Source: Alphaproteobacteria bacterium
GTDB taxonomy: Bacteria > Pseudomonadota > Alphaproteobacteria > Rs-D84
Assembly: GCA_024402765.1 (NCBI GenBank)
Contig: JAKSTC010000001.1
Coordinates: 133,785-197,784 of the forward strand
Reading direction: 5' to 3'
Length of the DNA stretch: 64,000 bases
Shown here: positions 28,704 to 46,318 of the stretch, one piece after another
Numbering within the stretch: the first letter of the stretch is position 1
Layout of the letters: each line of letters starts with the position of its first letter
Translations under genes and position numbers: made by a program
The notes under the pieces: generated by a model
Seen by the model: only the letters and a program-made list of their open reading frames with translations
What the model was told of the DNA's origin: nothing
Database searches by the model: none

Positions 28704-28712
28704 CTGGTGCCC
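28704..28712. repeat. att core copy A (left end of composite island)
   Basis: CTGGTGCCC is identical to the copies at 34672-34680 and 46244-46252. It shares a 10th base (C) with copy B. Confidence 0.65.
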
Positions 28713-28890
28713 CTAGTTCATAATAGTTGGGACAACTGGAATACATTTTATACCGAAATAATCAAAAACGCAAGAATTATCAAGGAAAGCGGTATATCTA
28801 ATGTTTTGCGTGTCGCTAACGGTGGTTTTGTGCCAAATCGCAAGAATCCTAAACCTTAACACCAGGGAAGAATAGGAATGTATATTTATA

Positions 28891-29697
28891 TTAACAAACC
28901 TTTTCGCAATTTGCAGTTTCCTCAGCATTAAACTCTGGAACACGTGCCACTTCGGCAGGTTGTTCAAAGTATGTTTTTATATGACGATAAACATCTTCCA
29001 CAAAGCCCTTGCATTGTTCTGTATTTTCTGTCTGAACCGAAAATGTATTATCATTGTTTTTTCTAATTGATGCTATTGCCACATTGCCACCAATGTAAGC
29101 AGAAGAAACTTCAATTGCGTGGTCGACAGTCCAATAAGCCAGATTAACCGCATTAGCAACATTTGGTATAGAATCTATTTGTATAATCTTTTTTATTAAA
29201 TGAATCGAGGGCATACCATTTGTAAAACCAGAGCCAATAATTGTGTACCACATACCAGAAGATTGAATTGGTGATATCATAAGCCCTGTTATCTTATACA
29301 AATAAAATTCACCACAATGATAAAAACCTATTACTGATACAAATTGAATCTGTTGTAAAAAATCATTGTGTAATTTTTGTATTAATAACCCTTTTGTATG
29401 CTCTGGAACTTTTGTTATCATTAATTCGTTGATAAAGTTATAAAAACCTTTTGTTATATCAGAAATAATAGCATCCGCTGTTCTATCTGGAACATCAAAC
29501 TGAAAATCTTCAAATTTTAAATTCAAAAAATTTAAGAAAAAACGCAAATAATTATCTGCACCAGCACAACAACAAACTATTCTGTTTTTTACTATGTGTG
29601 TTTTCAAATTATCAACACCAACTTGGTCAACAGAACACATTCCGTCAGAAGCAATCACTACACCATCTCTGCATAAAACCCCAATACCAATAGTCAT
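28891..29697 (-). CDS. Proteasome beta/HslV-like Ntn-hydrolase fold protein (candidate toxin or effector)
   Basis: N-terminus M-TIGIGVLCRDGVVIASD, with Thr directly after Met, Asp at mature position 17 and Lys near 31. GSG motif in YTIIGSGFTNG. Lies 6 nt downstream of the Panacea gene. Confidence 0.6.
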   Translation of the reverse strand: MTIGIGVLCRDGVVIASDGMCSVDQVGVDNLKTHIVKNRIVCCCAGADNYLRFFLNFLNLKFEDFQFDVPDRTADAIISDITKGFYNFINELMITKVPEHTKGLLIQKLHNDFLQQIQFVSVIGFYHCGEFYLYKITGLMISPIQSSGMWYTIIGSGFTNGMPSIHLIKKIIQIDSIPNVANAVNLAYWTVDHAIEVSSAYIGGNVAIASIRKNNDNTFSVQTENTEQCKGFVEDVYRHIKTYFEQPAEVARVPEFNAEETANCEKVC

Positions 29698-29703
29698 ATA
29701 AAA

Positions 29704-30150
29704 TTACTCCTGAATCAAAACGCTATTAACTTTCATTTCAGGAAATTCGTCATAAATTGCGAAACACAATTCACGAAAACTCTTTTTTAAAACGAAAGGA
29801 ATTAATGTGCACTGAATATAATCTCTTTCTGCTTTTGTTAAAAAATTGGCTGTGTCAGCACGTTTAACAATTTTATAAAGTGATAAATTGTTGTGTTTTT
29901 CAATTTCCATTTTTTCGTCTTTTACCAATTCATTTATAACAGCTTTCAATTCTGAATCATATGGTCCATATAAATATGGTTGAAAATTGAAATACGTGCC
30001 GTTTTGTCCCAACCTTTTTTCAATCAAAAAAAACAATTTTTGCACCTTTATCGGTGACAAATAAGGATGGTCAGCCGGCAACAAACTAAAAACGTTTAAA
30101 ACAAATTCTTTTCTATCCATAGGTCTATTCTTTACTAAAATATTTACCAA
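29704..30150 (-). CDS. Panacea (DUF4065, SocA/GepA-like) domain protein, candidate antitoxin
   Basis: SPIKVQKLFFLIEKRLG...FQPYLYGPYDSEL matches the KLqKLlY...W.yGPv signature of the family. Confidence 0.65.
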   Translation of the reverse strand: MVNILVKNRPMDRKEFVLNVFSLLPADHPYLSPIKVQKLFFLIEKRLGQNGTYFNFQPYLYGPYDSELKAVINELVKDEKMEIEKHNNLSLYKIVKRADTANFLTKAERDYIQCTLIPFVLKKSFRELCFAIYDEFPEMKVNSVLIQE

Positions 30151-30254
30151 ACATTAATTATTATTGCAACAACAATATAATAAAAACAACGGTTTTGTAT
30201 GTTTGTATTATACCATAAAGCACCATAAAATGAAAGAAAAAACAACTTTCTATA

Positions 30255-30283
30255 TTGCAAAATGGCTTTTTCTGGCATATAAT
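30255..30283 (+). promoter_or_regulatory. Near-consensus sigma70 promoter
   Basis: TTGCAA (30255-30260), 17-nt spacer, TATAAT (30278-30283). Confidence 0.65.
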
Positions 30284-30289
30284 CATAAA

Positions 30290-30532
30290 CAGAGTCGTAA
30301 AACAATTCGGCTTCAGAATCCAAGAGATTGGGTTCGGGGCTATCTCAAGCCCAGTTCATTCGGTGCGAAAGCATCGTTAATCTGATGTGATGGTGTTTTT
30401 GCACCGTTATCATCCCTGACTTATGGTCGGGGGGCTGTTGGTTATAAAATACGGGAAACTGGAAAGCCAATGGAATCAATAATGAACTGATTTGAGAAGT
30501 CCCCGACCGCTCTTTCTTGGGCGGTCTTTTTA
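30290..30532 (+). promoter_or_regulatory. Roughly 240-nt structured leader with mutually exclusive antiterminator and terminator (riboswitch- or attenuator-like)
   Basis: CCCTGAC (30414-20) pairs with GTCGGGG (30426-32). GGTCGGGG (30425-32) pairs with CCCCGACC (30501-08). Terminator GACCGCTC (30505-12) pairs with GGGCGGTC (30519-26), followed by ttttta. The RBS aaaggag and the ATG at 30550 come directly after. Confidence 0.55.
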
Positions 30533-30549
30533 TACAAAGGAGCTCAAAA

Positions 30550-30894
30550 ATGTCAGAAAAAGTCAGTGTAAATCAACAAAGCAATAAAAAAGAAAGAAAT
30601 GTTATTATTTCAGGATATGCTTGGTGGCTAGTAGTCATTGGAGCATTGTTTTCTGGATGTCTTAATGGTTATGATATGCGTTTTGGTATTCAAAATGAAG
30701 ATATAATGTTTTGGTCAACAATTTTGATTGGTTTTATTATGGGCTTAATTCCCGTATGTTTGGCAACATTTCTTGAAAAGAAACATCGTGCATATATTTA
30801 TTGGCTTAGTTTCTTTTCTGTTTGGATGCCACTAGGTATATTTGTTTGGGCGATTGCTGTAATTTGGGCGATTTTTGATAAAAAACGTATATAA
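30550..30894 (+). CDS. Small multi-pass membrane protein
   Basis: Start at MSEKV behind the RBS aaaggag. Three hydrophobic segments (WWLVVIGALF, WSTILIGFIMGLIPVCLA, WMPLGIFVWAIAVIWAIF). Confidence 0.5.
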   Translation: MSEKVSVNQQSNKKERNVIISGYAWWLVVIGALFSGCLNGYDMRFGIQNEDIMFWSTILIGFIMGLIPVCLATFLEKKHRAYIYWLSFFSVWMPLGIFVWAIAVIWAIFDKKRI

Positions 30895-30904
30895 AGGATT
30901 AAAT

Positions 30905-31150
30905 ATGAAAAAAACATTAGTAATAATAACTGCTTGTTTGGTGCTATCTGCTTGTTCTCATACTCATATAACTGAAGATATAATAGGTTATAACGAAACA
31001 GGTAAAGCCTTGGTTAGAGTGTGTAAATCGTCCGGCATTGGTGCCAATGCTAAGGCATTTGGGTCATCGTGCTTAATTGAATTGAGAGATTATGGAAAAA
31101 TTTCTAATACAGCAAATACCATAAATGTGATTTCTAATGACGACAGATGA
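30905..31150 (+). CDS. Small lipoprotein
   Basis: MKKTLVIITACLVLSAC lipobox, RBS aaaggat. Confidence 0.5.
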   Translation: MKKTLVIITACLVLSACSHTHITEDIIGYNETGKALVRVCKSSGIGANAKAFGSSCLIELRDYGKISNTANTINVISNDDR

Positions 31151-31164
31151 AAAAGGATATAAAA

Positions 31165-31821
31165 ATGAAAAAAATAATATTTATAATTATATGCTGTCTA
31201 AGTGTTAATATTTGTCAGGCACAAACATTTAAATCTATGTCAGAACTAGAAGAAGGCTTTATGGCTTTATGTGCTATTGTTGTATTTTTTATAATACTGA
31301 TAATTATAGGTATTCAAAACAATTTACAACAAAAACCGCGTGCAGATAAACCTGTATCGCAACAAGTAAAATTACCTAAAAAAGCAGAGCACGGGGCTAT
31401 GTGGCGATTATTGTTGGGTGGAAGTGAACAGATACCAGAGTTTGATACGATAGTATGTTTTAATAGGGTTCTTGGAAAACCAACTTTGTTCGAATATGAT
31501 GGTGACCTGAATAAGATAAAGAATCTGGCAAACAACCACGGTTTATTAAACTGGCTATGTGATATACGTCAACAATGGTTTGGTCTATTAAAAAACACAA
31601 AAAACATCCCCGTATCAACAATGACATTTTTCTTGTTTGATGCAAAAGGTAACATTTTAGGAATGGCGGCATTGTGGGAAGAAAAAACTTTTGGTAGAGA
31701 CTTCACGCCTTTTAGAATTCCATTAGAGGTTATAAAAGATACTTCATACGATTATCAAAAACTGAAACAAATGTCAGAAAGAAACCGGAAAGCGTTTTTA
31801 GAGGTTGTTGGGGGCAAGTAG
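31165..31821 (+). CDS. Signal-peptide and TM-anchored hypothetical protein
   Basis: MKKIIFIIICCLSVNICQA signal, second TM FMALCAIVVFFIILIIIGI, soluble C-terminal domain. An alternative start exists at 31147. Confidence 0.45.
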   Translation: MKKIIFIIICCLSVNICQAQTFKSMSELEEGFMALCAIVVFFIILIIIGIQNNLQQKPRADKPVSQQVKLPKKAEHGAMWRLLLGGSEQIPEFDTIVCFNRVLGKPTLFEYDGDLNKIKNLANNHGLLNWLCDIRQQWFGLLKNTKNIPVSTMTFFLFDAKGNILGMAALWEEKTFGRDFTPFRIPLEVIKDTSYDYQKLKQMSERNRKAFLEVVGGK

Positions 31822-32116
31822 TAAAAAATACTAGTTTTTGTGGTAATTTTTTTGGACTAGGTATAAAAATGTATGCTTAAAATCACCCAAAAAGCATACT
31901 TTTTTATCACAAATAAGTTAATTAGTGATAATAACGACTTTTATTATTTTGCTCGCAACACCACGGATTTTATGGTGTTGAGCCGTTTTTGATGCGAATA
32001 AAAGTCACAAATAAGCGTTTTTGTCGTAATTTATAAAAACAAATAATTTTGCCCAAAAAGTGTGTATGCGAATACTAACATACATTTTTGGATTAAAAAA
32101 TTTTTTACCAAAACAC

Positions 32117-32161
32117 TTTACATTCTGTTTTTGTATGATAATATTACATATGTGTAATATT
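32117..32161 (+). promoter_or_regulatory. Promoter with overlapping palindromic operator
   Basis: TTTACA (32117-22), 16 nt, TAATAT (32139-44). AATATTACA-tatg-TGTAATATT (32140-32161) overlaps the -10 element and the likely transcription start. Confidence 0.5.
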
Positions 32162-32174
32162 TTATGAGTGTAAA

Positions 32175-32921
32175 ATGACAGACAAGAAAACAAAACACAT
32201 ATTCGATTCTCGTGAATCTTTGCAAGGATGGTCTTTTGATACAGGTTTCAACAAACTAACCTTTAAAAACGCGAAATACGAAATGACTTTTGATGGGCAA
32301 GAATTACAAGAACTTTTGCAAGAAATGTCCACATTAAAAAAAATTATATCCAACGAACCCCAACAAGAATATCCTGGGCAATATCTGGTATCAAATAAAT
32401 CCAAACTAGCACACGTGATACTTACCCAAGAATCAATGGATGTGTTTATGTCTGCATCGGATAATTTGTCAGATAAAAAATACTTACAAGAATTACACGA
32501 CAAAAAGTTTCACAAACAGGATATTCCTATCAGCAGTCGTAATCTGAACGATTGGATACATACACAAAAGTTGCTACCAGACGACCGCACAAACACTGAA
32601 CAATGGCACACCTTTTCCAAAATAGACATCGCATATATTTATGTTCTAAAAGCCTGTCGCGAGTTTGGAATATCACTTCGTTTCTTACATAATGCCAAAG
32701 AATCTTTGCTTACCCGGATACCACAAAGCAAATTCTGTCTGCTTGAAATCGCATACACTTGTTTTGATAAAAGTAAAGAATCTAGGGACATCTTTCTTTA
32801 TATGGATTCCACTGGACATTGCAATATTGCACGTATAGACGATATTGTCCTGATGGCAAAAGAAAAAATGATTAACAAAAATTTCATACTTAACCTTAGT
32901 GAGGTCTGGCGTGAAATATAA
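32175..32921 (+). CDS. MerR-like HTH domain protein (regulator or excisionase-like)
   Basis: Central segment ISSRNLNDWIHTQKLLPDDRTNTEQWHTFSKIDIAYIYVLKACREFGISL follows the MerR HTH/wing pattern. Confidence 0.45.
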   Translation: MTDKKTKHIFDSRESLQGWSFDTGFNKLTFKNAKYEMTFDGQELQELLQEMSTLKKIISNEPQQEYPGQYLVSNKSKLAHVILTQESMDVFMSASDNLSDKKYLQELHDKKFHKQDIPISSRNLNDWIHTQKLLPDDRTNTEQWHTFSKIDIAYIYVLKACREFGISLRFLHNAKESLLTRIPQSKFCLLEIAYTCFDKSKESRDIFLYMDSTGHCNIARIDDIVLMAKEKMINKNFILNLSEVWREI

Positions 32922-33023
32922 GAACCAACCACTTTTACAATGCATCGCACAAACCGATATAAAAGTGGTTTCACTTAACCCTGTTTTTGCTTACGCACAA
33001 TCCGAAGCCAAAACGCAACCAAT

Positions 33024-33212
33024 ATGGTGGATGCGATGGCGACGTTGTCTGTGGCAGAATGCAGAAAACATCTGGGCAACACAAGTTTGACAGACAAACA
33101 AATCGAAACTATCAGGGATAACCTGACGGTAATGATAAACACAATATTTAACAAGGTGCTAAACAATGCAAATAACAAAAGCGGTATGTTATATAAGGGT
33201 ATCAAGCGATAA
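33024..33212 (+). CDS. Small conserved ORF immediately 5' of integrase 1 (candidate directionality factor or regulator)
   Basis: LTDKQIETIRDNLTVMINTIFNKVL aligns with IDTQRAQIISSYLTNIFNTIFNCIL of the ORF at 44400-44567. Overlaps the integrase start. Confidence 0.45.
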   Translation: MVDAMATLSVAECRKHLGNTSLTDKQIETIRDNLTVMINTIFNKVLNNANNKSGMLYKGIKR

Positions 33213-34779
33213 GCAAGTCAGTGATGGCAACGGGTTAGAAACCCAACAATGGGCTTGCCAATCCTGGGCAAAACGTAATGAATACACGATTGAACGCTTT
33301 TTTGTAGATGCCGCTAAAACGGGCACAAAGACCGAGGGTCGCGATAAACTTGCCGAAATGATAGATTACCTGGCAAAGACAAAAGAATCCAGATTAGTAT
33401 TGTTTTATGACATAAGTCGTCTGGCACGTAACGCTGGTGATTTTCTTAAACTTCGTAAATCTATGGAAAAGAGCGGACACAGATTAGCAACCTGTAAAGG
33501 CGTTTTGGAAACAAGCCCTGTTGGAAAATTTATGGCAACGATAGAAGCAGCCCAAGCGGAATTATTTGCAGACCAAAATCGAGAACGCACAGTTGCTGGT
33601 ATGCGTGAAGCCGCAAGGAATGGATATTGGATAACACATCAACCGCCGGGATACCAGTTTGTAAAAGTTGGAAGTCGCAAAGAATTGAAACGACAAGAAC
33701 CCTTGGCGAGTATTATACAAACAGCCCAAGAAGATTTTGCAGATGCTAAGTTATTTTCACAAACTGACGTTGCAAATTTTTTGACCCAAAAGATGCGTTG
33801 CGCTGGATTAGAAACCCCAAAGAACATCTTTGATTTCGTAAAGCGCATTTTGACAGACCGGAAATACACGGCAATTTTTGCATATCCAAAATATGATATA
33901 CCCGTGCAAAAGTGGCATATAGAACCATTGATTAGCACTGAAACTTTTGAGTTAATTCAAGACAGGTTGCACGGTATCAATCGGGTAAAGCATAGAAAAT
34001 ATAACAAGCACGACGAAAGGTTTCCGTTAAAGGGACTGATTATTTGCCCAACGTGTGGTCGTCCATTGACAGCCAGTATGACAAAACGTGGTAAATATCC
34101 ATACTATCAATGTCAAAACAGAAAGTGCCCCGACAAAAAATTAGCAAACGTGTCCCCACAGATATTACACAAAGAATTCGAAACAGAAATCTTGGATAAA
34201 ATCGCCCCATCCGAGAATTTGATTGCGTTAACCCGGGCGATAGCAACAAAAGAATATTCTGAACGCAACAAGTTATCCAGTGCAAATAATGAAGAAAAGA
34301 AAAAGCGTATTAGCGAAATTGAACAAGAACAGTCTAAAATTGCCGATGCTTATATCGGGGCAAGCGATATAATGAAAAAATCGCTTAACCAAAAGATTGA
34401 TGCGCTGGAATCCGAGAAGTTAACATTACAAGACGAAGTTGATAACTACGAACCAGAACTTATGCCATTTGACGAAGCGTTTAATTATGTTGCGGACTTT
34501 TTGAATCGACCAATTGAGGCGTGGCGTAATGGCGATTATGGTATAAAACAAATGGTCCTAAATTTGTGTTTTGCTGATAAAATTTCTTATAACAAAGAGC
34601 AAAAATTTGGGACTCCTAAATTATCCCAGATTTTCAATATGTTCAGCGGTTTTTTACAGGGGAATTCTTGTCTGGTGCCCCAGATGATTTCTCAAGAGGA
34701 CCACATGACTAGATTCTATAACTTGGTTATGGATATGTCAACACAATTGGGTTATATATGCAGAGCTTTTGGTGATTAA
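33166..34779 (+). CDS. Large serine recombinase (integrase 1). The ORF crosses att core B and ends in element-2 sequence.
   Basis: Catalytic N-domain (CYIRVSSDKQ, SRLARN), recombinase domain, zinc ribbon CPTCG...CQNRKC, coiled coil. Colinear with integrase 2 up to NSCLVP. Confidence 0.85.
   Translation: MQITKAVCYIRVSSDKQVSDGNGLETQQWACQSWAKRNEYTIERFFVDAAKTGTKTEGRDKLAEMIDYLAKTKESRLVLFYDISRLARNAGDFLKLRKSMEKSGHRLATCKGVLETSPVGKFMATIEAAQAELFADQNRERTVAGMREAARNGYWITHQPPGYQFVKVGSRKELKRQEPLASIIQTAQEDFADAKLFSQTDVANFLTQKMRCAGLETPKNIFDFVKRILTDRKYTAIFAYPKYDIPVQKWHIEPLISTETFELIQDRLHGINRVKHRKYNKHDERFPLKGLIICPTCGRPLTASMTKRGKYPYYQCQNRKCPDKKLANVSPQILHKEFETEILDKIAPSENLIALTRAIATKEYSERNKLSSANNEEKKKRISEIEQEQSKIADAYIGASDIMKKSLNQKIDALESEKLTLQDEVDNYEPELMPFDEAFNYVADFLNRPIEAWRNGDYGIKQMVLNLCFADKISYNKEQKFGTPKLSQIFNMFSGFLQGNSCLVPQMISQEDHMTRFYNLVMDMSTQLGYICRAFGD
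34672..34680. repeat. att core copy B (junction between elements 1 and 2)
   Basis: CTGGTGCCC encodes LVP inside integrase 1. The left flank (ttttacaggggaattcttgt) is homologous to the left flank of copy C (ttttacacatcaactcttat). Confidence 0.6.
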
Positions 34780-34788
34780 ACCAATTAT

Positions 34789-34826
34789 ATTTGATTTAGA
34801 CATAGAAAATAATGTCCAAATCAAAT
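34789..34826. repeat. Imperfect inverted repeat, candidate res/crossover site for the adjacent resolvase
   Basis: ATTTGATTTAGACAT-agaaaata-ATGTCCAAATCAAAT: 15-bp arms with 1 mismatch, 82 nt upstream of the resolvase ATG. Confidence 0.45.
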
Positions 34827-34908
34827 CATTAATAGCTTGCTTTTTGGACACTTTCACGTCAGTGTACAGCTATATTTAAAGGTTTCAATTATACAAAAGG
34901 ATATTCAT

Positions 34909-35472
34909 ATGGTAAAAATTCTATATGTAAGGGTTTCAACTATTACCCAAAATGAAGATAGACAGGTTCAGGAAGCAGATAATTATGACAAAGTATTTTT
35001 AGATAAGTGTTCAGGGAAAGATGTAAATAGACCAGCCTTGCAAGAAATGCTTTCTTATGTAAGAGATGGCGATGAAGTATATGTGCACGAACTATCAAGA
35101 TTAGGAAGAAATACATTTGATTTACTAAAATTGGTAAGAACCTTACTTGATAAATCTGTTAGTGTGCATTTTATAAAAGAAAATCTGCATTTTAACCCAG
35201 ATAAAGCAGACCCTGTATCCAATATGACTTTTGAAATATTTTCAGCAGTTGCAAGCTTTGAACGACAACTTATAAACCAAAGATGCCAAGAAGGTAGAGT
35301 TCTGGCAAAAGCAGCCGGTAAATATAAGGGCTCTAAAAAGCACCTATCTAATGAACAAATTGCTGAACTCAAAGAATTGGTAGCACAAAACAGAAAAGTA
35401 TGGACACCTACTGCTTTGGCTAAAAGATACAGCATATGCAGAGCAAGCGTTTATAATTATCTAAAAATGTAA
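34909..35472 (+). CDS. Small serine recombinase (resolvase/invertase, Hin/Tn3 type)
   Basis: ILYVRVSTITQNEDRQ catalytic Ser region, SRLGRN, C-terminal HTH LAKRYSICRASVYNYLK. Start at 34909 behind the RBS aaaagga. Confidence 0.85.
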   Translation: MVKILYVRVSTITQNEDRQVQEADNYDKVFLDKCSGKDVNRPALQEMLSYVRDGDEVYVHELSRLGRNTFDLLKLVRTLLDKSVSVHFIKENLHFNPDKADPVSNMTFEIFSAVASFERQLINQRCQEGRVLAKAAGKYKGSKKHLSNEQIAELKELVAQNRKVWTPTALAKRYSICRASVYNYLKM

Positions 35473-35558
35473 ATTCAAAATTTAGTCATGTTTAATCCAG
35501 ACAAATAAGTAATGAAGATAGAATCTTCATTAACAATAATAACCAAAAGGGTTAAACC

Positions 35559-35996
35559 ATGGCAAAGATAAAAAGAAAGAAGCTGGTAAAGCTAATTAAT
35601 AGAACAAAAAACGAACAAATAGACAATATCTGGTTACACATTGGATTTCTGGGTACTAACATAGATGGCTGTCTAGGCAGACTGATTCCTACAGATTCTA
35701 TGTTTACAGAAGATGAAAGGTTTCCAGATACTTTATCTGAGATACAAAACTTTCTTGGTCATGTAATGACTGTTAAAAGATTAATGTTAATCAGACAATG
35801 TAGTGTTAATCCAGAAATAGTTCATATGATACACCAATTAGAAGAAAACCCTCAAAATATTTGGCAAATCTTTAATGAACATAGGCATATCTTTGATATA
35901 AAAAAGAAGTCAAATAATCAATCTAAAGAAGATGATAAAGAAAAATATAATACTATTAAAAAAGTTGTTGAAAAATGGCTTTCAAAAGAAGAATAA
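35559..35996 (+). CDS. Hypothetical protein
   Basis: 145-aa ORF with the RBS aaaaggg. No recognisable motif. Confidence 0.35.
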   Translation: MAKIKRKKLVKLINRTKNEQIDNIWLHIGFLGTNIDGCLGRLIPTDSMFTEDERFPDTLSEIQNFLGHVMTVKRLMLIRQCSVNPEIVHMIHQLEENPQNIWQIFNEHRHIFDIKKKSNNQSKEDDKEKYNTIKKVVEKWLSKEE

Positions 35997-36041
35997 ATAT
36001 AAACCCACGATTATTAGCCGTGGGAGTTATACAATTTGTAA

Positions 36042-39000
36042 TTATTTGAAATAAATATTCAATATTTCTGTTACTGAGTCCCTTATAGATTCTTGTTCTT
36101 TGGATATACTATCTATTTCTTGCTCTAATGGGCTAATTAAATCTATAATTTTGTTTTGGTCAGAAAGGTTATGTAAATCAATTTGCAAAGCATATGCATC
36201 GTTTCTGTTCAAACCTCCAGAGCCTAATCCTTTATTCAAAGATTCTAAATTTAACCTTTTTAAAACAAAATACACATAGTCTATCAAAACAGAATTATTC
36301 TTTATATTAACATAATAAGTTGTATCTATAGGGGTATTGTTCATTGATATTTTATTAACCTTGCCAACAGAACCTTTTCTGCCCACTATTATAGAAGGAC
36401 CTTTAATAAGGTATTTATCATGATACCCTATTATGCCATTAGCACCAACAACAGGATATTCACCATCATTTCGTTTTTGTTTTGGAAGAGGTACACCATA
36501 TTCCAAAGAAATAATATCTCCTAATCTTTTTTTATCTGTTGAAGTAAAAGATTTAAATATATCAAACTCTTCTTGAAGAAGTTTTTTCTTCTTTAAAAGT
36601 AAACTACTTTGCTTATCGTATAGTATGTGCAATTTTTCTATAATATTTTCTTGGTCTTTTTTTGGAAGAACAGGTATTTTTATTTTTAGTATATTGGTTT
36701 TAGACAATCCGCCCTGTGCTGCACCAGAAACAACAGATTTCATCATATTTTGACCGTAATCAGAATATAAAAAAGCAAACAAATATTCTTGTAAAATTTT
36801 ATTTGTTTTAGCACGTAAAATAAAAACATGTTCGTTAACAGAGCTTTTGCTATACGGATACCCAGAATCTAACAATGCAACTTTCCCTGTTAAAGCTCCA
36901 TCTTTACACAACAAAATGTCATTTGGTTTTATAATACCATGTGACATTCTATCAAATTCATCCTCTGTTATGTATCTCATATTTGAAAAAACAACTTTAC
37001 CATCTAAACCTATATGTTCACCACCTAAACTAGGTATTCCAGTCTTTTGTCGTTCTTGGCCAATTTTACTGTTTCTGCTGCCCGTTTGTATGGTTTCTAA
37101 CAAATTACCAAGTTGTTCCAAAGGATATGTTGTATCAAACTCTATTTTTTTTTTAGCATTTAAATTAAGAGATTTATTAAATTGCACCGTATCAAACGAT
37201 ATTAAATCAGATAAATTTAGATAATCTATATGTTCATGTAAACTATGGTCTGGATTATTTTTGATACTCACAACTTCTTTTGCTACATTCACATTCTGAA
37301 AATTATTCAATATATATGTATTTAGCTTACAACCGTTATATTTATTCAAACAATCAAATAATTTAGTCTTTATATTGTTATCGGCATCTCTATATATTTG
37401 AATACCCTCATGTCCCCTGCGATTTGAAAATTCATAGCCATAGAAAGCCTTTTCTGTATCTTTGTCTTTGGAATCAGCTAAAACTATTTTTTGTGTATAC
37501 GTCAATGCAAAATATGTTAATTTTTCTTTCTCTATTTCAATCACTTCAGAAACAGGAATATCTTTATATTCCTTACAAAAATCACTATTCATATCACAAG
37601 TTGACTTATTGTTTTTTAGAAAATTAACATAATCTTCAAATTTTAAACTGTCCCAAACAGAATTAATATATAAAGAAACACAATTTTTTATTCCATTTAT
37701 TGATACATCTTCGTATGTTTCAAAGAACTTTTCTGTTGCCGATTTTATTTCTTCAAAAACAAAAGATGCTCTTTTTCTCATAAACAAAATAACAGTTTTT
37801 GTATTGGTTGCTGCAAATGCCTGTCCGCCCAAAGCAACAATTGCTTTGAATTCAAAATTCTTTAACAAAATTTCTCTGGCTTTTTCATAAATACCGTTAT
37901 TAGTTAATACAGATATCGGTAATACTATTGCAACAATACCATTTTCTCGTACTAATTGTTTTGCTCTTTCTATAAATAAACATTCTATTTCAGAACTGTT
38001 ATCTGTTAAATCCTTATATAAATCAAAAGAATTAATACCATCATTTAAAGTGTTTTTAAATGCTCTGACGGCATAAGGTGGGTTTGATATTAAGACATCA
38101 AATTGTTCATTATCTTTGGTGTTTTTTAGACTTTTTAATTTATCTTTATACACTGTGCTTTTAGAAAAACTATCTAAGCCATCCGCATGAATAATATTTG
38201 CCAAACCATCGCCATTTAGGAAACATGCAATTTTTGTGGTTTTTACCAAACGATAATCTAAATCAATACCATAAACATATTTTTCTGCCCAAGCGAAATC
38301 ATTTATTTGCCAAGATTCTACCTCTTTTTTTAGAGAGGTTTTAGCGATCTTACTGGTGTCAACAGTTTTAATGATTTTATTATATTCATCCATAACTTCT
38401 GTTAAAAAATGTCCAGATCCCATGGCATAATCTATAGTGTATGGTAATATATCATCTTTTTTGTTTTGAATGTTATCATAAATAATTTCTCTTAATGGTA
38501 TACTATTTATTATAAACTGTGTTATTGGTACAGGTGTAAAAAACTGTCCGGACTCTTGCTTAATACTATCTTTTAAAAGACTTTCAAAAAAATCACCTAA
38601 AAATTGTTGTTTATGAGAATAGCGTAGTTGTTTGTCTTGTAATAATTCTACAATTTCACGAACAACTTTTGCATTATCTTTAAAAGATTGCTTGTCAAAA
38701 ACTTCTCTAAAACCAAAAACATTGTCTTTATACAATCTTAACTGTCTATAGGCATCGATTAATTCTTGATTGTTAGCTCTGTTAGCAATAGATTGAAAAT
38801 CCTGAAGAGTAATATCTTCAATGTCCTTATTTAGGTAATATTTCATGCCGTTCATATACAAATCAGATAAATCTAGCAATAAATCTTCATCTGATTTTTC
38901 GTTGGTACCACTACGAGTTTGAAATTTCAATTCTTCATCGTCGTTTGTATCTTCATCATAAATTTTGCATAAAAACAAATTAATAATTTTATTAAAAGCA

Positions 39001-39752
39001 TTTGATTTATCTGAAATAACATTATGTCTTAATATTTCAGCAAATTTATTGTATATGTTATCACCATCAACTTTATTTAATGGTTTTAAATCCATTTTTG
39101 TTAATGCTTTAGATTGCAAATTGTAAGGTTTAACCCAAGATTCAAAAATGCCGTTGTCTTCAAATTTGCCCAACCACCTATTGTATCTATCTTCTTGATT
39201 TAAATCTGCCCAATCTTTATGATTATAAACAATGGAAGTTTTGTATTCTTGGGTATCTGGATTATATGTATATAAACATATGGCTTCTGTTGTTTTGGGT
39301 TCCTGTTGCAAATAACTAAAAATTTGTGAACCATTTTTAGATTTATTTAAGGTGTTTTTAATCTCTGTTTCAAAATCTTTTCCCCAAACTTTGCATTCAA
39401 TCATCAAAAACGCCATACCATGCAAATCTTTAACAAGAATATCTAGAAAACCCTTGCCGTTATGCCCCAGATTCCATGTTTTTTCTAACTCTATACTTTC
39501 TGGTTTATAACCTTTTTCTAAAAGCCTATTAACACACTCTAAAACAACAAAACTTTCTGTTTGGTGAAAATTACACGTTGTTTTACGACCTGTTTTTATT
39601 TTTGTACCATAATCAATAATAGAATTCTGTGGGCAAATGCAATCATACTTTATGGTAATTTCATATCCATTATAACACTTAGCCCAAACATTAGTTTGTC
39701 CTGATTTTGGTGAAAAACCAATGGATTCAATAAGTTGTATAAAATTACTCAT
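36042..39752 (-). CDS. Single-polypeptide restriction-modification-specificity enzyme (Type IIB/IIG, AloI/CjeI-like)
   Basis: N-terminal PD-(D/E)xK (FLDILVKD...FLMIECK). Gamma-class N6-adenine methyltransferase motifs DYAMGSGHFL and NPPY (LISNPPYAV). Two C-terminal HsdS-like target-recognition domains separated by a coiled-coil spacer. 1236 aa. Confidence 0.75.
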   Translation of the reverse strand: MSNFIQLIESIGFSPKSGQTNVWAKCYNGYEITIKYDCICPQNSIIDYGTKIKTGRKTTCNFHQTESFVVLECVNRLLEKGYKPESIELEKTWNLGHNGKGFLDILVKDLHGMAFLMIECKVWGKDFETEIKNTLNKSKNGSQIFSYLQQEPKTTEAICLYTYNPDTQEYKTSIVYNHKDWADLNQEDRYNRWLGKFEDNGIFESWVKPYNLQSKALTKMDLKPLNKVDGDNIYNKFAEILRHNVISDKSNAFNKIINLFLCKIYDEDTNDDEELKFQTRSGTNEKSDEDLLLDLSDLYMNGMKYYLNKDIEDITLQDFQSIANRANNQELIDAYRQLRLYKDNVFGFREVFDKQSFKDNAKVVREIVELLQDKQLRYSHKQQFLGDFFESLLKDSIKQESGQFFTPVPITQFIINSIPLREIIYDNIQNKKDDILPYTIDYAMGSGHFLTEVMDEYNKIIKTVDTSKIAKTSLKKEVESWQINDFAWAEKYVYGIDLDYRLVKTTKIACFLNGDGLANIIHADGLDSFSKSTVYKDKLKSLKNTKDNEQFDVLISNPPYAVRAFKNTLNDGINSFDLYKDLTDNSSEIECLFIERAKQLVRENGIVAIVLPISVLTNNGIYEKAREILLKNFEFKAIVALGGQAFAATNTKTVILFMRKRASFVFEEIKSATEKFFETYEDVSINGIKNCVSLYINSVWDSLKFEDYVNFLKNNKSTCDMNSDFCKEYKDIPVSEVIEIEKEKLTYFALTYTQKIVLADSKDKDTEKAFYGYEFSNRRGHEGIQIYRDADNNIKTKLFDCLNKYNGCKLNTYILNNFQNVNVAKEVVSIKNNPDHSLHEHIDYLNLSDLISFDTVQFNKSLNLNAKKKIEFDTTYPLEQLGNLLETIQTGSRNSKIGQERQKTGIPSLGGEHIGLDGKVVFSNMRYITEDEFDRMSHGIIKPNDILLCKDGALTGKVALLDSGYPYSKSSVNEHVFILRAKTNKILQEYLFAFLYSDYGQNMMKSVVSGAAQGGLSKTNILKIKIPVLPKKDQENIIEKLHILYDKQSSLLLKKKKLLQEEFDIFKSFTSTDKKRLGDIISLEYGVPLPKQKRNDGEYPVVGANGIIGYHDKYLIKGPSIIVGRKGSVGKVNKISMNNTPIDTTYYVNIKNNSVLIDYVYFVLKRLNLESLNKGLGSGGLNRNDAYALQIDLHNLSDQNKIIDLISPLEQEIDSISKEQESIRDSVTEILNIYFK

Positions 39753-39897
39753 ATAGTATATCTTTTCTTATATTTTAACATATAATTGGCATAAATTCAC
39801 CAAAAATATTAAAAAAAATCCACATAAAAATCAATAATATTTTAAATATTAGTAATTTTTATTAGAGTGGATTATGTAATAAAAAACAATAAATACA

Positions 39898-40620
39898 TTA
39901 TTTTTTTGGTTTTTTGCTCATTTTTTCACCTGTTTCAGCAAAAAAAGCATCGTCACTATTTATTGCTCCAGATGTAATAATGAATATAGCATCTCCTGTA
40001 TTCATTACAAAATCTTTGTATTTTAAATCTTTGCACCTGTTTCTAAAAAGCCGTAGTTGTGTTGAATCTTCTTGTGTTGTATAAAACCCAAGTTTTACAG
40101 TAAATAAGTACCCAACCAAATCTTCAACTAAATTAAGGTCAGAAGAATCACACATTGCAAAGCAATTAATGAAGCTTTCTAATCTTATATACGATAATAA
40201 ATTGACTGTTTCTTCTGGATAATCAAACAATAATTGTCCTATGTCAGGAATTACATATACTATATTTCTGTTTATTCCTAATGTTTCCAGATGTTTTATA
40301 CTATCAAAGAATTCTTCTTCTGATTTGATGAGATTGAAATGTTTTGTGTGTTCTGGAAAAATTGATAACCATTCAATTTCTCCCTTATCTAAAATATACA
40401 CACGTGAAGTATCTTTGTTTGTTGTATCAAAAAATAATTTCATATGATCTATTAACCAGTTTTTTTCTATTTCAAAAGAAATAGATTTTTCACCTGTAAA
40501 TAAAATTGTCTGAAAACTTAAAGGTGTACAGTTTTTCAATACATCATTATCGTCAAATACACATAAAGATTTATGTAATAAATTTTCATTACATCTTGCA
40601 AAATTTGCTGCTATTTTCAT
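39898..40620 (-). CDS. Hypothetical protein downstream of the prim-pol gene
   Basis: 240-aa ORF with the RBS aaggag. No recognisable motif. Confidence 0.35.
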   Translation of the reverse strand: MKIAANFARCNENLLHKSLCVFDDNDVLKNCTPLSFQTILFTGEKSISFEIEKNWLIDHMKLFFDTTNKDTSRVYILDKGEIEWLSIFPEHTKHFNLIKSEEEFFDSIKHLETLGINRNIVYVIPDIGQLLFDYPEETVNLLSYIRLESFINCFAMCDSSDLNLVEDLVGYLFTVKLGFYTTQEDSTQLRLFRNRCKDLKYKDFVMNTGDAIFIITSGAINSDDAFFAETGEKMSKKPKK

Positions 40621-40742
40621 TTTTTACTCCTTATTTATACATATATTTATCAAATGTAAACAAACATAAAAATTTACTTTTGCATATGTAAAAAAAACTA
40701 AATATCTAAACTTTTTGCTAAAAGGTAAATTTCAATAAATAA

Positions 40743-40768
40743 TATATTAAGTAGTACTACTTAATATA
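40743..40768. repeat. 26-bp perfect palindrome between prim-pol and the 240-aa ORF
   Basis: TATATTAAGTAGT|ACTACTTAATATA. Confidence 0.7.
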
Positions 40769-40799
40769 AATTTTTTTTATTTTACCTTTGACAGACATG

Positions 40800-42596
40800 T
40801 TATCTATATGCAGGTCTATCATATATTTCAGGGTGAATTTCTTTCACCACATTTTTTCGTGTGATTTCATAATTTATAGTATCTATTTCTCCTGCTGGTC
40901 TAAAACAATCTATGTTTTCCTTGAAAGACACGATAACTGTTTTTAACACCTGTAAATCTTTTATTCTGGTATATTTAATCACATTGCTAAAATTTAAAAT
41001 ATTTTGAGCAACTATATTAAATATATTTTTCCCTAAAATACAATTATAATTACTGTCCAAGATAACAAATCTTGCACACATTACACCTGGGATATAATAA
41101 TTACCTTGTTGGTCTATAACTAAATATAATCCATATAAATTAGATATGAATGCATTTATTTTTCTAACTATCCCTGTTGTTTCACCACTTATATTGATTA
41201 TTCTATTAATGTAAACAGTTCCCAGGTTGCCACATAGATTATTATATTTTGTTGAATCTTGTATTTTTATATAATTATTAAAGAAGTTATTAACTATATC
41301 ATTAATATTATCTTCTGATAGTTTGTGCTTTCGTGCTTTTTTATTATATTCATTTAAAAAATAATTTATGGCAAATTTTTCTGCTAATAAAACATCTGTT
41401 TTATTAACATCCGGTAAATAATCGTGCCAGTCTTTGACTTCTTCAACAAACTCTCTTTTGTTTATTTTAAGTCCTTTTACAAGATATTCTACTTGGGATG
41501 TTAATTGATCTGTGTTTGATAAAATATCTGCATTACCACCAAGTTTTTTTATTGTATTTACTATTTCAGGGACATTACTCATAAAATCACTAATGTTAGG
41601 GTTCTTTTGTTTTTCTTGGTGAATTATATATGGCACTAATTGAGATAGTTCTTCATATGAATTGCCACGTGATAGACCTTGGGAAAATATTTTTTGTCCA
41701 ATTTCTATGTTAGATTGACCATTCGTTATTGCAGATGCTTCTTTTTGTGCCTTGTTATCCTCAGTGTGTTTTTGGGGATGATTTGACTGTGAAACTGTGT
41801 GCCGCTCTTCAAAAATACTTTCGTCTATTGACAATGAATTTTGCTTTAATGTTAAAATTGCATCAGAAAAAGCTTCATATACATCATATTCTGAATAATA
41901 TGATTTTCTATATTGTAATGTCCCAGGAACCCTAAACCATGCTTTGGGCATATCAATAATTTTCTGACATACAGGTAATTCTATTTTCAATAGCTGAGAT
42001 GCCACATTTTGTAAATATTTTTGAACCATACGTCTTTGTTTAGAAGTCATATCCTTATCACAAAAAATCCACATATGTGTGCCCATTCCATTGTTTTTAT
42101 TTTCATAAACAGAATTGTTTCTGAATGAATTAATAAAAGCAGATTGTATTTTGGTGTATTGGTCTTTTAATGATTCTTCATGACAATCTAAATCTATCCA
42201 CAATACCCTTGAATACTCTTGCTGAATAAACCCATAGTTATCAAAATTATTTTGAATATATCTCAGTTTGTTAAAATAGTTATCTTGGTTTTTAAATTTA
42301 CAAGGACGACCTTTTTGTTTGGCATATTGATTTGAATAAAAACTTAAAACCTTATTGGTTTTTGGGTCTTTATAACCAACAAAATGAATGTTATAACCAA
42401 ATTCTTTCAGAATATATCTTTTTAATTCATATGTTTTTTGATTACGTCTCTTTAATGCTTTTTTTATACCAAAAAATAGTTTTTTTTCTTTGTTTGATAA
42501 TGTTTTTATGTCTTTTGATAAAAGTTCTTTAACTTTTTCATCGTCTAAAGAAATTCCATGATAATAATTATATGTAGAATTCATGATGAGCCTCAT
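40800..42596 (-). CDS. Primase-polymerase (AEP/prim-pol) type replication protein
   Basis: Motif I VLWIDLDCH (DxD), motif II GMGTHMWIF (sxH), motif III WFRVPGT. The long C-terminal domain has no obvious Walker A. Confidence 0.55.
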   Translation of the reverse strand: MRLIMNSTYNYYHGISLDDEKVKELLSKDIKTLSNKEKKLFFGIKKALKRRNQKTYELKRYILKEFGYNIHFVGYKDPKTNKVLSFYSNQYAKQKGRPCKFKNQDNYFNKLRYIQNNFDNYGFIQQEYSRVLWIDLDCHEESLKDQYTKIQSAFINSFRNNSVYENKNNGMGTHMWIFCDKDMTSKQRRMVQKYLQNVASQLLKIELPVCQKIIDMPKAWFRVPGTLQYRKSYYSEYDVYEAFSDAILTLKQNSLSIDESIFEERHTVSQSNHPQKHTEDNKAQKEASAITNGQSNIEIGQKIFSQGLSRGNSYEELSQLVPYIIHQEKQKNPNISDFMSNVPEIVNTIKKLGGNADILSNTDQLTSQVEYLVKGLKINKREFVEEVKDWHDYLPDVNKTDVLLAEKFAINYFLNEYNKKARKHKLSEDNINDIVNNFFNNYIKIQDSTKYNNLCGNLGTVYINRIINISGETTGIVRKINAFISNLYGLYLVIDQQGNYYIPGVMCARFVILDSNYNCILGKNIFNIVAQNILNFSNVIKYTRIKDLQVLKTVIVSFKENIDCFRPAGEIDTINYEITRKNVVKEIHPEIYDRPAYR

Positions 42597-42654
42597 TTTA
42601 TATTATGGTTAATATGCCCCTTGAAAAAATTTTTCCAAGGGACACGTGTGTTAG

Positions 42655-43728
42655 TCACGCCGTTGGCATGGTTTCAATTAATTGTTTTACAAGACCAGGT
42701 AAGAAACATTCCCCTATACAGGTCCTAATTAGATTTTCTGAACACCAATCTGGCACTGGATAATCATCTGGTAATCCTGTTAACCTCAATATTTCTAACA
42801 AAGATAGAACACGAGCGTCGCTGTAAAGACCGTCTGGCATAAGGCGACCAGGATGACCTGTTGATTGAGAGCCCCAACTTCCATTGTTTGTCGTGATTGT
42901 CGGGGCTGGTTTATCCCAAGAAATCCTTGAATACGATTGCCGGAAAGATTTCACTCTAGAACCATCTGCTTTTCGTGGATAAAAGAATTTGTTATCCTGT
43001 GAACAGCCCCCTGAAGGTGTGTGTCTCATAGTAATAACATGTCTTTCTGGTAAAGATGGGGCTTTATGATATTTTATTCCACTATCTTCACCTGCTTCTA
43101 TACTGGGTAAATCACCAATGACATCAATTACTCTGATTTGGCGATCACGCTTTTGTGGTGCTGGCCAAAAGCCATGTTTTGATGCTAGTACAATGGCTCT
43201 TTTTCTGTGTTGTGGAATTCCAAAATCTGCTGCATCTAGTACAACTATATTAACATTATATCCTAAACCTGTTAATGTCTCGTCAATAAGTTTTCTTATC
43301 TGGATTTTTGCATCGCCAACTTGGATATGTGCTGTCAAAAATTGAGGCACATTTTCTATGATAACATATTCAGGATCAGTCCTACGTATGATATCTAAAG
43401 TTGGTAGAATCAAAAATTGTCTCTGATCATTTTGCTTGTTTCCAGTAGTATTAACAGGGGCAAAACTTTGGCACGGGGGTGTTCCTAGAATCATTTTGCA
43501 TCCGAGTTCTTCATATTGTTGCACAATTTGGTTTTGAACATTTGGATCCGTGACGTCGCCACAAATCATTTTTACATCTGGATATATTGCTTCATACAAT
43601 TTTGCCCTTGATGAGTTTATTTCATTAGCCAATGCTACTTGAACATTTGTGTTTGCCAAATAGTATTCACTTATACCAGCACCCGAACAAATCGAGCAGA
43701 CATTAATGCCTTTCAAAGAATTCGACAT
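42655..43728 (-). CDS. DNA (cytosine-5)-methyltransferase
   Basis: Motif I CSICSGAGIS, IV GTPPCQSF, VI ENVPQF, VIII QHRKRAIVLA. Confidence 0.88.
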   Translation of the reverse strand: MSNSLKGINVCSICSGAGISEYYLANTNVQVALANEINSSRAKLYEAIYPDVKMICGDVTDPNVQNQIVQQYEELGCKMILGTPPCQSFAPVNTTGNKQNDQRQFLILPTLDIIRRTDPEYVIIENVPQFLTAHIQVGDAKIQIRKLIDETLTGLGYNVNIVVLDAADFGIPQHRKRAIVLASKHGFWPAPQKRDRQIRVIDVIGDLPSIEAGEDSGIKYHKAPSLPERHVITMRHTPSGGCSQDNKFFYPRKADGSRVKSFRQSYSRISWDKPAPTITTNNGSWGSQSTGHPGRLMPDGLYSDARVLSLLEILRLTGLPDDYPVPDWCSENLIRTCIGECFLPGLVKQLIETMPTA

Positions 43729-43894
43729 TTTATAGTCCCTTTTTTTACAAAGATCCCTAAAAAAGAACCTTTTGGGTTAAATTTTCCAAAAAACTGGGGC
43801 ACTAGCACATTTTGATATATGTGCTTTAAACCCCTGTTTTTTGGGACTTTTGATAAAAAAAGAAGAAAAATTTTTTTAAAATTTTAAAAAAAAC

Positions 43895-43922
43895 TTTACA
43901 AATGTCATTTCTGCACTATAAT
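43895..43922 (+). promoter_or_regulatory. Near-consensus sigma70 promoter of the sRNA candidate
   Basis: TTTACA (43895-43900), 16 nt, TATAAT (43917-43922). Confidence 0.55.
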
Positions 43923-43928
43923 CTCACT

Positions 43929-44030
43929 TACGGACGTGAATAATAAGTACAGAAAAATCTTTGCGTTTTTCTTCTTTTATTCTCAAAAAAAGGAGGACGG
44001 ATTTCGATCCGTCTCTCCCTCTTTTGTTTG
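43929..44030 (+). ncRNA. Candidate roughly 100-nt small RNA (promoter to terminator, no ORF)
   Basis: Runs from the promoter above to the GC-rich hairpin GGAGGACGGAT-ttcg-ATCCGTCTCTCC (43992-44018) plus a U-rich tail. There is no start codon with an ORF in between. Confidence 0.45.
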
Positions 44031-44140
44031 AAAAATAGTATAACACGAAAATAATAAATTTCAAATGTTTTTTCTAAAAAATCAAAACAAATTTTTTTCT
44101 TGTCTTTTTCAAAAACACGACGTTTTCTGGCTTATTTATA

Positions 44141-44183
44141 AATTATTATGTAATATTAATTATATTAATATTACATAATAATT
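44141..44183. repeat. 43-bp perfect palindrome (20-bp arms, 3-nt spacer), candidate ori or operator
   Basis: AATTATTATGTAATATTAAT-tat-ATTAATATTACATAATAATT. Contains the TGTAATATT/AATATTACA half-sites also found at 32140-32161. Confidence 0.8.
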
Positions 44184-44399
44184 ATAAAATAATTTGTTAA
44201 AAAAATTAGAAAAATTCAAATCTTTGTTGGTTGTGCATCTGTCTTATGTTTGCTGTTTTTTTGTTTGTTATGCCCTATAAACCGATTCGTTTTTGATAAA
44301 TTTTTTCACCTTAAAAAAGATTTTATGTAAGATAATTTTATTATTGAAATTTCATAATTGATGACGGTATTAATTTTATATTAATGAAAGGGTTATATT

Positions 44400-44567
44400 A
44401 TGGAAAAAATTAATTTTACCAGAAACAAAGAAGCACCTGCAAATTTATCAAATGATAATGACATTGTTAAAAGTTTAGAAAATTTACAAATAGACACTCA
44501 ACGTGCACAAATTATAAGTAGTTATTTAACTAATATTTTTAATACTATTTTTAATTGTATTTTATAG
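44400..44567 (+). CDS. Small conserved ORF (55 aa) immediately 5' of integrase 2, not in the ORF track
   Basis: MEKINFTRNKEAPANLSNDNDIVKSLENLQIDTQRAQIISSYLTNIFNTIFNCIL. The C-terminal 25 aa align with the ORF at 33024-33212 (9 identities, including NTIFN). Confidence 0.45.
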   Translation: MEKINFTRNKEAPANLSNDNDIVKSLENLQIDTQRAQIISSYLTNIFNTIFNCIL

Positions 44568-44584
44568 TGGTGGGGGGGATTATT

Positions 44585-46255: not shown

Positions 46256-46318
46256 GCAAGAATCGGACTTGCGACTCGTCCTTACCAAGGACGTGTTTTA
46301 CCACTAGACTATTAGGGC
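46245..46318 (-). tRNA. tRNA-Thr(GGT), CCA encoded
   Basis: Reverse complement is GCCCTAATAGTCTAGTGGTAAAACACGTCCTTGGTAAGGACGAGTCGCAAGTCCGATTCTTGCTTAGGGCACCA. Perfect acceptor and anticodon stems. The T-loop is TCCGATT (C at position 55), and the D stem has one mismatch. Confidence 0.85.

Follow-up and report, generated by a model that had tools for sequence, protein, structure and literature searches.

We analysed a window of 64,000 nucleotides (the whole stretch of DNA considered here: Alphaproteobacteria bacterium, assembly GCA_024402765.1, contig JAKSTC010000001.1, positions 133,785 to 197,784 of the forward strand), in which two small defence islands lie in tandem at a tRNA-Thr(GGT) gene, each ending with the gene (int) of a large serine integrase, Int1 in element 1 and Int2 in element 2. 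Comparison with related elements indicates that the attachment site of the element (attP) very probably lies inside int, ~25-55 codons before the natural stop, and that the integrase isoform is set by the integration state. In the mechanism we propose, a 9-bp core would serve as the crossover region between attP and its chromosomal counterpart (attB) for two related integrases whose target is the tRNA-Thr(GGT) 3' end. Integration would split int: the catalytic and DNA-binding body would stay next to the tRNA, closed by the tRNA stop or by a few tRNA-encoded residues, and the 3' segment, which encodes a helix-forming tail, would move to the distal end of the element. The excised circle would encode a full-length integrase and a single integrated copy a truncated one; a tandem array would give the resident integrase the tail of the newcomer, here Int1 with the tail of element 2.

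The 9-mer CTGGTGCCC occurs exactly three times on the plus strand of the window (0.12 expected; 0 of 100 shuffles reach three), as cores A, B and C (Table 1). It is the reverse complement of the tRNA-Thr(GGT) 3' end, GGGCACCA(G), and spans the end of the acceptor stem, the discriminator base and the CCA; the surroundings of the three copies have only ~10 bp in common. The tRNA gene is called intact at the junction, indicating that it is restored after integration at its 3' end. On the chromosome, the left flank consists of aspS and then a SemiSWEET gene with its terminator, which forms the chromosomal (B) arm left of core A, and the right flank of the tRNA gene and an ABC transporter.

The original prediction held that the open reading frames (ORFs) of both integrases run through the core, that Int1 extends 32 codons into the left end of element 2 and that Int2 is closed right after the core by a tRNA-derived stop, all of which is borne out. 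In Int1, the core B codons LVP are residues 503-505 and are followed by QMISQEDHMTRFYNLVMDMSTQLGYICRAFGD and a stop; Int2 ends in LVP at core C, and its TAA (46253-46255) lies inside tRNA-Thr(GGT). The frame after core A had likewise been described as open, and it is, for 48 codons instead of the 50 claimed (28713-28856, with the stop at 28857-28859), encoding LVHNSWDNWNTFYTEIIKNARIIKESGISNVLRVANGGFVPNRKNPKP. This orphaned int1 tail holds the conserved motif SWDNWNTFYTEIIKNARIIKESGI...VANGGF, with homologous tails in L001-L005, L007, L009 and L018 and in P0121-P0124. In shuffled sequence, chance open frames of at least 32 codons occur at 11% of positions and of at least 48 codons at 3%; on their own the open frames are weak evidence, and it is the comparative data that give the observation its significance.

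At the distal junctions of 18 elements (W-E1 and W-E2 in the window, L001-5, L007, L009, L010, L011, L013, L014, L018, L019, L020 and two in L022), a homologous tail stands in frame with the core codons. These elements represent four target classes: Thr-GGT, Thr-TGT, Arg-ACG and a tmRNA-like (transfer-messenger RNA) end. Every relative examined at its far end has such a tail, except P0032 (L016/L017), where the junction is unclear. The family consensus is W-x2-F-Y-x-E-I-I-x-N-A-R-I-I-K-E-S-G-like (individual tails are given in Table 1), and the D-x4-F-Y likeness reported earlier between the two window tails is real and belongs to this family-wide motif. The element 2 tail aligns with the family and keeps R-F-Y-x2-V-M, having lost the W and the K-E-S-G.

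Several features indicate that this segment is translated. Substitutions concentrate at third positions (2, 3 and 12 variable columns at the first, second and third codon positions), six elements share their first 28 tail residues in spite of synonymous differences, and the length from core to motif differs by whole codons (+2 in L007, +13 in L010). Conservation extends ~125 nt from the core, to VANGGF and well past a 50-bp attachment site, and no conserved minus-strand frame over the tail was found among the relatives compared. Between the window and L018, the ratio of nonsynonymous to synonymous substitution rates (dN/dS) is 0.10 for the tail and 0.05 for the integrase body. From these data, the tail is a coding part of int under purifying selection, and the original suggestion that the tails might be conserved family features is confirmed. 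A minus-strand ORF that overlaps the tail in the window (28713-28967) was also considered and rejected, since its open frame is not kept in relatives.

The same data bear on the possibility that read-through is incidental, with attP simply overlapping the 3' end of int and the conservation coming from a DNA half-site or an unrelated small gene. Open frames this long are not rare, the tetramer GGAC of the attachment site coincides with the D codon, and gene callers sometimes annotate the orphan tail as an ORF of 51-59 residues. The synonymous pattern, the whole-codon insertions, the ~125-nt reach and the maintenance of frame with int in every lineage all argue against this explanation, as does the distal end itself, where the orphan tail has no consistent start codon and neither a start codon nor a ribosome-binding site is conserved in the B arms; we regard it as very improbable. 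The tail is conserved even though it is translatable only within int in the free or tandem state, from which we infer that the full-length isoform is made and matters.

Int1 and Int2 are bona fide large serine integrases. Both carry the catalytic domain PF00239 (Resolvase; E = 5e-31 for Int1 and 2e-31 for Int2), with R11-V12-S13 and Q17 invariant across 32 sequences, and PF13408 (Zn_ribbon_recom) is matched, with C294, C297, C316 and C321 invariant. The AlphaFold model of Int1 has a predicted local distance difference test (pLDDT) score above 80 to ~residue 500 and includes a long coiled coil at 350-426, as helices 350-396 and 401-426; its best Foldseek matches are the full-length SPbeta, Bxb1, phiC31 and LI integrases (E = 3e-20). 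The core codons fall within a disordered linker (502-511), and the modelled body folds confidently without the tail. For PF07508 (Recombinase), Int1 scores 16.9 bits, below the 21.1 cut-off, and Int2 gives no match, and surveys that select large serine recombinases by PF07508 would likely miss this family; in a large computational survey of serine integrases, proteins were chosen by PF07508 and tRNA is never mentioned in the main text.

The two integrases had been described as colinear up to NS(C/Y)LVP. They are 38% identical, only up to ~residue 490 of Int1 and 487 of Int2, beyond which Int2 has ~55 extra residues before its NSYLVP. This ~55-residue insertion before the core (Int2 ~488-556, window 46046-46252) is also seen in P0023, P0024, P0026, P0028, P0030 and P0126, and in the P0023 group it holds an internal LVP and a second P-x-I-F...NSYLVP stretch resembling a duplicated C-terminal end. 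That the insertion in Int2 and the P0023-like proteins is a captured old tail is not supported: hhalign detected no similarity to the tail family.

Almost all copies in the databases are of the truncated form. Int1's nearest relatives (71-96% identity) have 505, 508 or 509 residues and end exactly at ...NSL(M/V)VP, because they were sequenced in the integrated state, and the same lengths recur nearly throughout the cluster members listed (10 cluster member lists, with at most 40 members listed of each). Other homologues continue into translations of tRNA genes (VVGLEPTTY, AARIGLAPRPYQ, AARIGLAPRPYQGRVLPLYY, AAGIEPAS, WRTQKDSNPQ). Homologues that end at LVP had been named beforehand as evidence that would count against the original prediction; they do occur, yet they represent the expected truncated form, and their homologous tails exist at the distal ends. 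Database entries of these enzymes are thus systematically truncated, and cloning from annotation would yield an incomplete protein.

The int ORF adjoins a tRNA or tmRNA 3' end in relatives down to ~30% identity, in hosts that comprise gut Alphaproteobacteria known as metagenome-assembled genomes (MAGs, including Candidatus Enterousia) and Legionella. In eight of nine loci of uncultured gut Alphaproteobacteria the neighbour is tRNA-Thr(GGT), and its TAA closes the ORF in seven of the eight; L007 stops after 20 tRNA-encoded codons. In the ninth locus, L009, the int ORF leaves the contig end. Other subfamilies adjoin tRNA-Thr(TGT), tRNA-Arg(ACG) or a tmRNA-like 3' end in Legionella pneumophila. 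At this last site (L014:11499-11563) the int ORF enters a ~28 nt piece resembling a tmRNA 3' end; no tRNA or tmRNA gene is called nearby, and genes typical of another island (AlpA-like, DndB, restriction enzymes) follow, so the region is probably a composite island array. In L020, a fragment of a tRNA-Arg 3' end (TGGCGCGCCCAGAAGGATT..., 6748-6790) stands 186 bp upstream of the left core of the element and could be a remnant of a previous integration there. P0182 (654 aa, P0009 cluster) diverges just before the core and enters sequence that lies beyond the tRNA-Thr gene in L002/L004, which would reflect either misassembly or loss of the tRNA end by deletion.

Across lineages the cores read CTGGTGCCC, CTGGTGC, TGGTGC and GTGG, with a common core of 4-13 bp, which would confine the crossover to the Val codon G-T-G and the next base (C/G). 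The chromosomal B arms are unrelated between hosts, save for 2-3 nt beside the core, and the P' arms of the elements are conserved. In the P' arms of L010 and the two window elements, GGAC occupies nt 21-24 after TGGTG, compared with nt 16-19 in the tRNA (B') arm; in L010, the 8-mer ATCGGACT is displaced by exactly 5 bp. In phiC31, the zinc-domain motif shows a 5-bp register shift and lies further out in attP than in attB (preprint 10.1101/2025.05.02.651858), and the displacement of GGAC and ATCGGACT matches it, a likeness that is suggestive only. The codon for the D of D-x4-F-Y falls within GGAC, equally far from the core in both P' arms, so that this residue may be under constraint from the DNA sequence itself. 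A scan for dyad symmetry, meant to locate the central dinucleotide, yielded weak, inconsistent signals.

L022 (6702-15589) holds another tandem array, independent of the first, at a Thr-TGT-type core. Its resident integrase, P0221 (551 aa), crosses the proximal core into the tail of the downstream element, which carries a fused PARIS AriAB system (E = 6e-131), and its own tail stands at the distal core; P0221 is the one tailed integrase found in the cluster member lists, and it comes from a tandem array, not from a circle. Such arrays could arise if a newcomer takes the P arm of the resident in place of the chromosomal arm, which it may accept since the chromosomal arm appears unconstrained; inserting beside the tRNA, it would leave the resident integrase with the newcomer's tail. 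The int bodies of L002 and L004 are nearly identical (synonymous divergence, dS, 0.009) and their distal tails (at 4036 and 5416) have strongly diverged at synonymous sites (dS 1.2); the two ends of these elements therefore reassort, tandem arrays being a possible route.

Related integrases occupy the same tRNA in several MAGs, where the cargo differs and the left ends are reassorted, implying that the elements still move. This argues against suicidal integration of the kind attributed to SSV1, in which the tail would be essential, the truncated enzyme dead, and excision dependent on a complete integrase from a newcomer or on a regained tail. The same logic is described for archaeal suicidal integrases (PMC8371274), and it would fit the truncation of nearly all database copies and the renewed tail that a tandem array gives its resident. 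On the other hand, the truncated int ORFs are intact in >150 database members, with few clear fragments, and the AlphaFold body is confident without the tail. We consider suicidal integration doubtful.

Based on these comparisons, the earlier proposal that attP lies inside int, with Int1 wearing the tail of element 2, Int2 tail-less and the tail of element 1 orphaned, is supported in all its parts. Activity, directionality or stability probably differs between the two isoforms; the element would thereby have a physical read-out of its own integration state, and it is plausible that the tail couples integrase activity or directionality to that state. A destabilizing role was suggested to us by the ssrA-like tags of integration-dependent immunity: as a degron, the tail would shorten the lifetime of the free-form integrase, and the integrated form would be stable. 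The Legionella/tmRNA and Thr-TGT lineages do have tails that end like ssrA-type degradation tags, in LAA (L014:3927), LVA (L017:~2500-2590), KAA (L011:4776) and RAA (L022:11547, element Y), but those of the whole Thr-GGT group, including both window tails, end in KP, PK, KE, YI or KN, and the conserved portion is the internal helix, not the C-terminus, so that a degron seems improbable.

A role of the tail as a directionality switch is a tentative and still rather unlikely possibility. The full-length enzyme would integrate and the truncated one would permit attL x attR recombination, alone or with a MerR-like protein, the tail acting on the hinge between the coiled coil and the zinc domain, which is where directionality factors bind. 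In the Int1 model the tail sits at the C-terminus behind a disordered linker, as such a switch would require, although AlphaFold shows no docking. By analogy, the extreme C-terminus of phiC31 integrase lies at the channel that binds the directionality factor (10.1101/2025.05.02.651858), and a factor fused at the C-terminus through a 32-residue linker works (10.1101/2025.05.02.651858; PMC5737554). Few candidate directionality factors are found within the elements, only small ORFs or the MerR-like protein. The latter is a ~270-aa MerR_1-like protein with a homologue in element 1 (Table 1). In four distant relatives (L011, L014, L016/L017 and L020) and in element 1, its gene is found upstream of int at a distance of 1-3 small ORFs. 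This gene could encode a regulator or a conventional directionality factor, and in the latter case a tail switch would be unnecessary.

Several observations weigh against an isoform switch by split int, or at least complicate it. The element 2 tail is divergent, and Int2 is without close relatives by which to judge it. The first ~8 tail codons overlap the presumed P' half-site, and conservation at the DNA level may contribute there; the summed statistic for the 5-bp offset is noisy, not clean. The Int1 tail is modelled only as a low-confidence helix (512-530, pLDDT ~50, with no alignment depth over the tail) and does not dock confidently. Scans of the reconstructed C-termini gave no Pfam match for the tail, and in a hydrophobic-moment analysis its amphipathicity was moderate and of inconsistent significance. 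Insertion into an occupied site (attR) by a canonical serine integrase is a difficulty for this reading. Finally, neither an excised or circular junction nor a full-length integrase with its own tail was found in a 5.8-billion-protein set, JGI contigs, IMG/VR or the members listed. A degenerate attP DNA pattern had no match in JGI metagenome contigs or IMG/VR, a general P'-arm pattern none in JGI metagenome contigs, and a protein-pattern scan none in IMG/VR; the tail-only protein search returned four orphan ORFs and nothing else, and among phage genomes the search for an intact attP form found only distant relatives (<30% identity). The missing circle is absence of evidence in assemblies and not proof that excision fails.

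Table 1. Features of the window, predicted recombination junctions and tail sequences of the family
Feature	Position	Strand	Description
Core A	28704..28712	+	Left junction (attL) of element 1
Orphaned int1 3' segment	28713..28859	+	48 codons and stop; in frame with LVP of core A
Element 1, ~6.0 kb	28713..34671		Ends with Int1; single-copy relative in L018
148-aa protein, element 1	29704-30150		PADLOC PDC-M19A (5e-11), DarG (4e-7)
248-aa protein, element 1	32175..32921	+	Homologue of ~270-aa MerR_1-like protein
Int1 ORF, 537 aa	33166..34779	+	Body residues 1-505 up to core B, then 32 element 2 codons
Core B	34672..34680	+	Junction of element 1 P arm with element 2 P' arm
Element 2 tail	34681..34779	+	32 codons and stop, fused to Int1
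Element 2, ~11.6 kb	34681..46243		Ends with Int2
Small resolvase/invertase	34837-35472		Directly after element 2 tail
Type IIG restriction-modification enzyme, 1236 aa	36042-39752		Two specificity domains; PADLOC E = 4e-213
AEP-primase-like protein	40800-42596		
C5 cytosine methylase	42655-43728		
Int2, large serine integrase, 556 aa	44585..46255	+	ATG at 44585; ends LVP
Core C	46244..46252	+	Right junction, attR of element 2, on tRNA
tRNA-Thr(GGT)	46245..46318	-	Integration target; same target in L001-L008, L010, L018
Predicted element 1 attP junction			...GGGGAATTCTTGTCTGGTGCCCCTAGTTCATAATAG...
Predicted element 2 attP junction			...CAACTCTTATCTGGTGCCCCAGATGATTTC...
Predicted empty attB			...GCGCTTTTTATTCTGGTGCCCTAAGCAAG...
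Tail, L001-L005 and L009			LLHKSWDNWNRFYNEIMRNARIIKESGI...VANGGF
Tail, window core A			LVHNSWDNWNTFYTEIIKNARIIKESGISNVLRVANGGF...
Tail, L018			LLHRSWDNWNRFYTEIIRNARIIKGSGI... (single element 1-type element, integrase 87% identical)
Tail, L007			The same, two-codon insertion (integrase 52% identical)
Tail, L010			...AQWQEFYKEIIQMGFIIKNSGI...
Tail, L011			HLMRGSWNQFMQEMTQTAQMIENSGL...
Tail, L013			HLGLKTWNTLLADIIHTAKILENTGV...
Tail, L020			VRNSWKSLLPEIIKTAKYIKATSLL...
Tail, L019			...REIYRYAEYISNSNIL...
Tail, Legionella L014			VSSHNWNRFNSHILEWGKELLGLAA

The cargo of element 2 (34837-43728) resembles a module for defence and replication. The 148-aa protein of element 1 has a 268-aa neighbour (region 28891-30150) with only a sub-threshold match to a proteasome subunit, and the two may form a small toxin-antitoxin or defence pair; the remaining cargo includes proteins of unknown function.

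In SSV1 the split falls near the N-terminus of the integrase and breaks up the catalytic protein; here, in contrast, the loss is limited to a C-terminal tail, and the catalytic and DNA-binding body remains whole. In Tn4451, the tnpX promoter is formed on the circle, which changes transcription, whereas in the family described here the coding sequence changes. In ICEKp1, too, the junction alters the output of the recombinase gene, through transcription by int promoter switching (PMC13023037).

SSV1-type integrases of archaeal viruses and plasmids otherwise share the arrangement of an attachment site inside int, a partitioned gene and a tRNA target; they are tyrosine recombinases of archaea (PMC8371274), whereas the enzymes here are serine recombinases of Alphaproteobacteria and Legionella, and a 2021 review describes 'suicidal' integrases with the attachment site inside int as exclusive to archaea and as tyrosine enzymes (PMC8371274). 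The domain architecture and short core of the Int1/Int2 family are those of canonical large serine integrases (phiC31, Bxb1, SPbeta SprA and Listeria LI/A118), and its arm motifs are suggestive of the same 5-bp register shift of the zinc domain. In canonical systems, however, attP lies outside the int ORF, the same protein is made in both states and a separate directionality factor is used, and the targets are usually protein-coding genes and not tRNA 3' ends (PMC6109161).

A parallel in gene layout is integration-dependent immunity, in mycobacteriophages BPs and Brujita and in Mycobacterium abscessus prophages, where attP sits close to the 3' end of a gene and yields a state-dependent isoform: in the integrated state the product is closed by a junction stop, often at the 3' end of a tRNA, and is 20-35 residues shorter (PMC8092301; PMC6109161). 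There, a tyrosine integrase is used, the gene that is split encodes the repressor and the lost piece is an ssrA-like degron (PMC8092301); here, the gene of a serine integrase is split and a conserved helix is removed. Engineered C-terminal fusions of integrase and directionality factor, in which an appendage on a flexible linker resets directionality (PMC5737554) and one of which was used for the phiC31 structures (10.1101/2025.05.02.651858), are synthetic and append a whole factor protein, whereas the tail here is natural and 25-55 residues long. Islander-type islands also integrate at tRNA or tmRNA 3' ends and restore the gene; their integrase is a tyrosine enzyme and the displaced tRNA fragment measures tens of bp, against the serine enzyme and 9-bp repeat seen here. 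No description of a serine integrase gene interrupted by attP turned up in full-text literature searches, and the original remark that the arrangement is not known for large serine recombinases holds as far as these searches reached.

An attachment site inside int, so far described in archaea alone and for tyrosine enzymes, is by this finding extended to serine integrases of bacteria. The finding also defines a clade of serine integrases that target tRNA 3' ends and mobilise small defence islands with restriction-modification, PARIS and DarG-like cargo in gut Alphaproteobacteria and Legionella. For large serine integrases, which are widely used genome-engineering tools, the central question is directionality, and a natural isoform pair lets the effect of the C-terminus on the choice between integration and excision be tested directly. 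In a fuller scenario, which we put forward as unlikely, the free circle would make a full-length, integration-committed enzyme, the integrated copy would be tail-less and either licensed for excision or silenced, and the tail of a newcomer would re-arm the resident. If true, this would constitute natural in-cis control of directionality without a separate factor, and neighbouring islands would affect each other's mobility.

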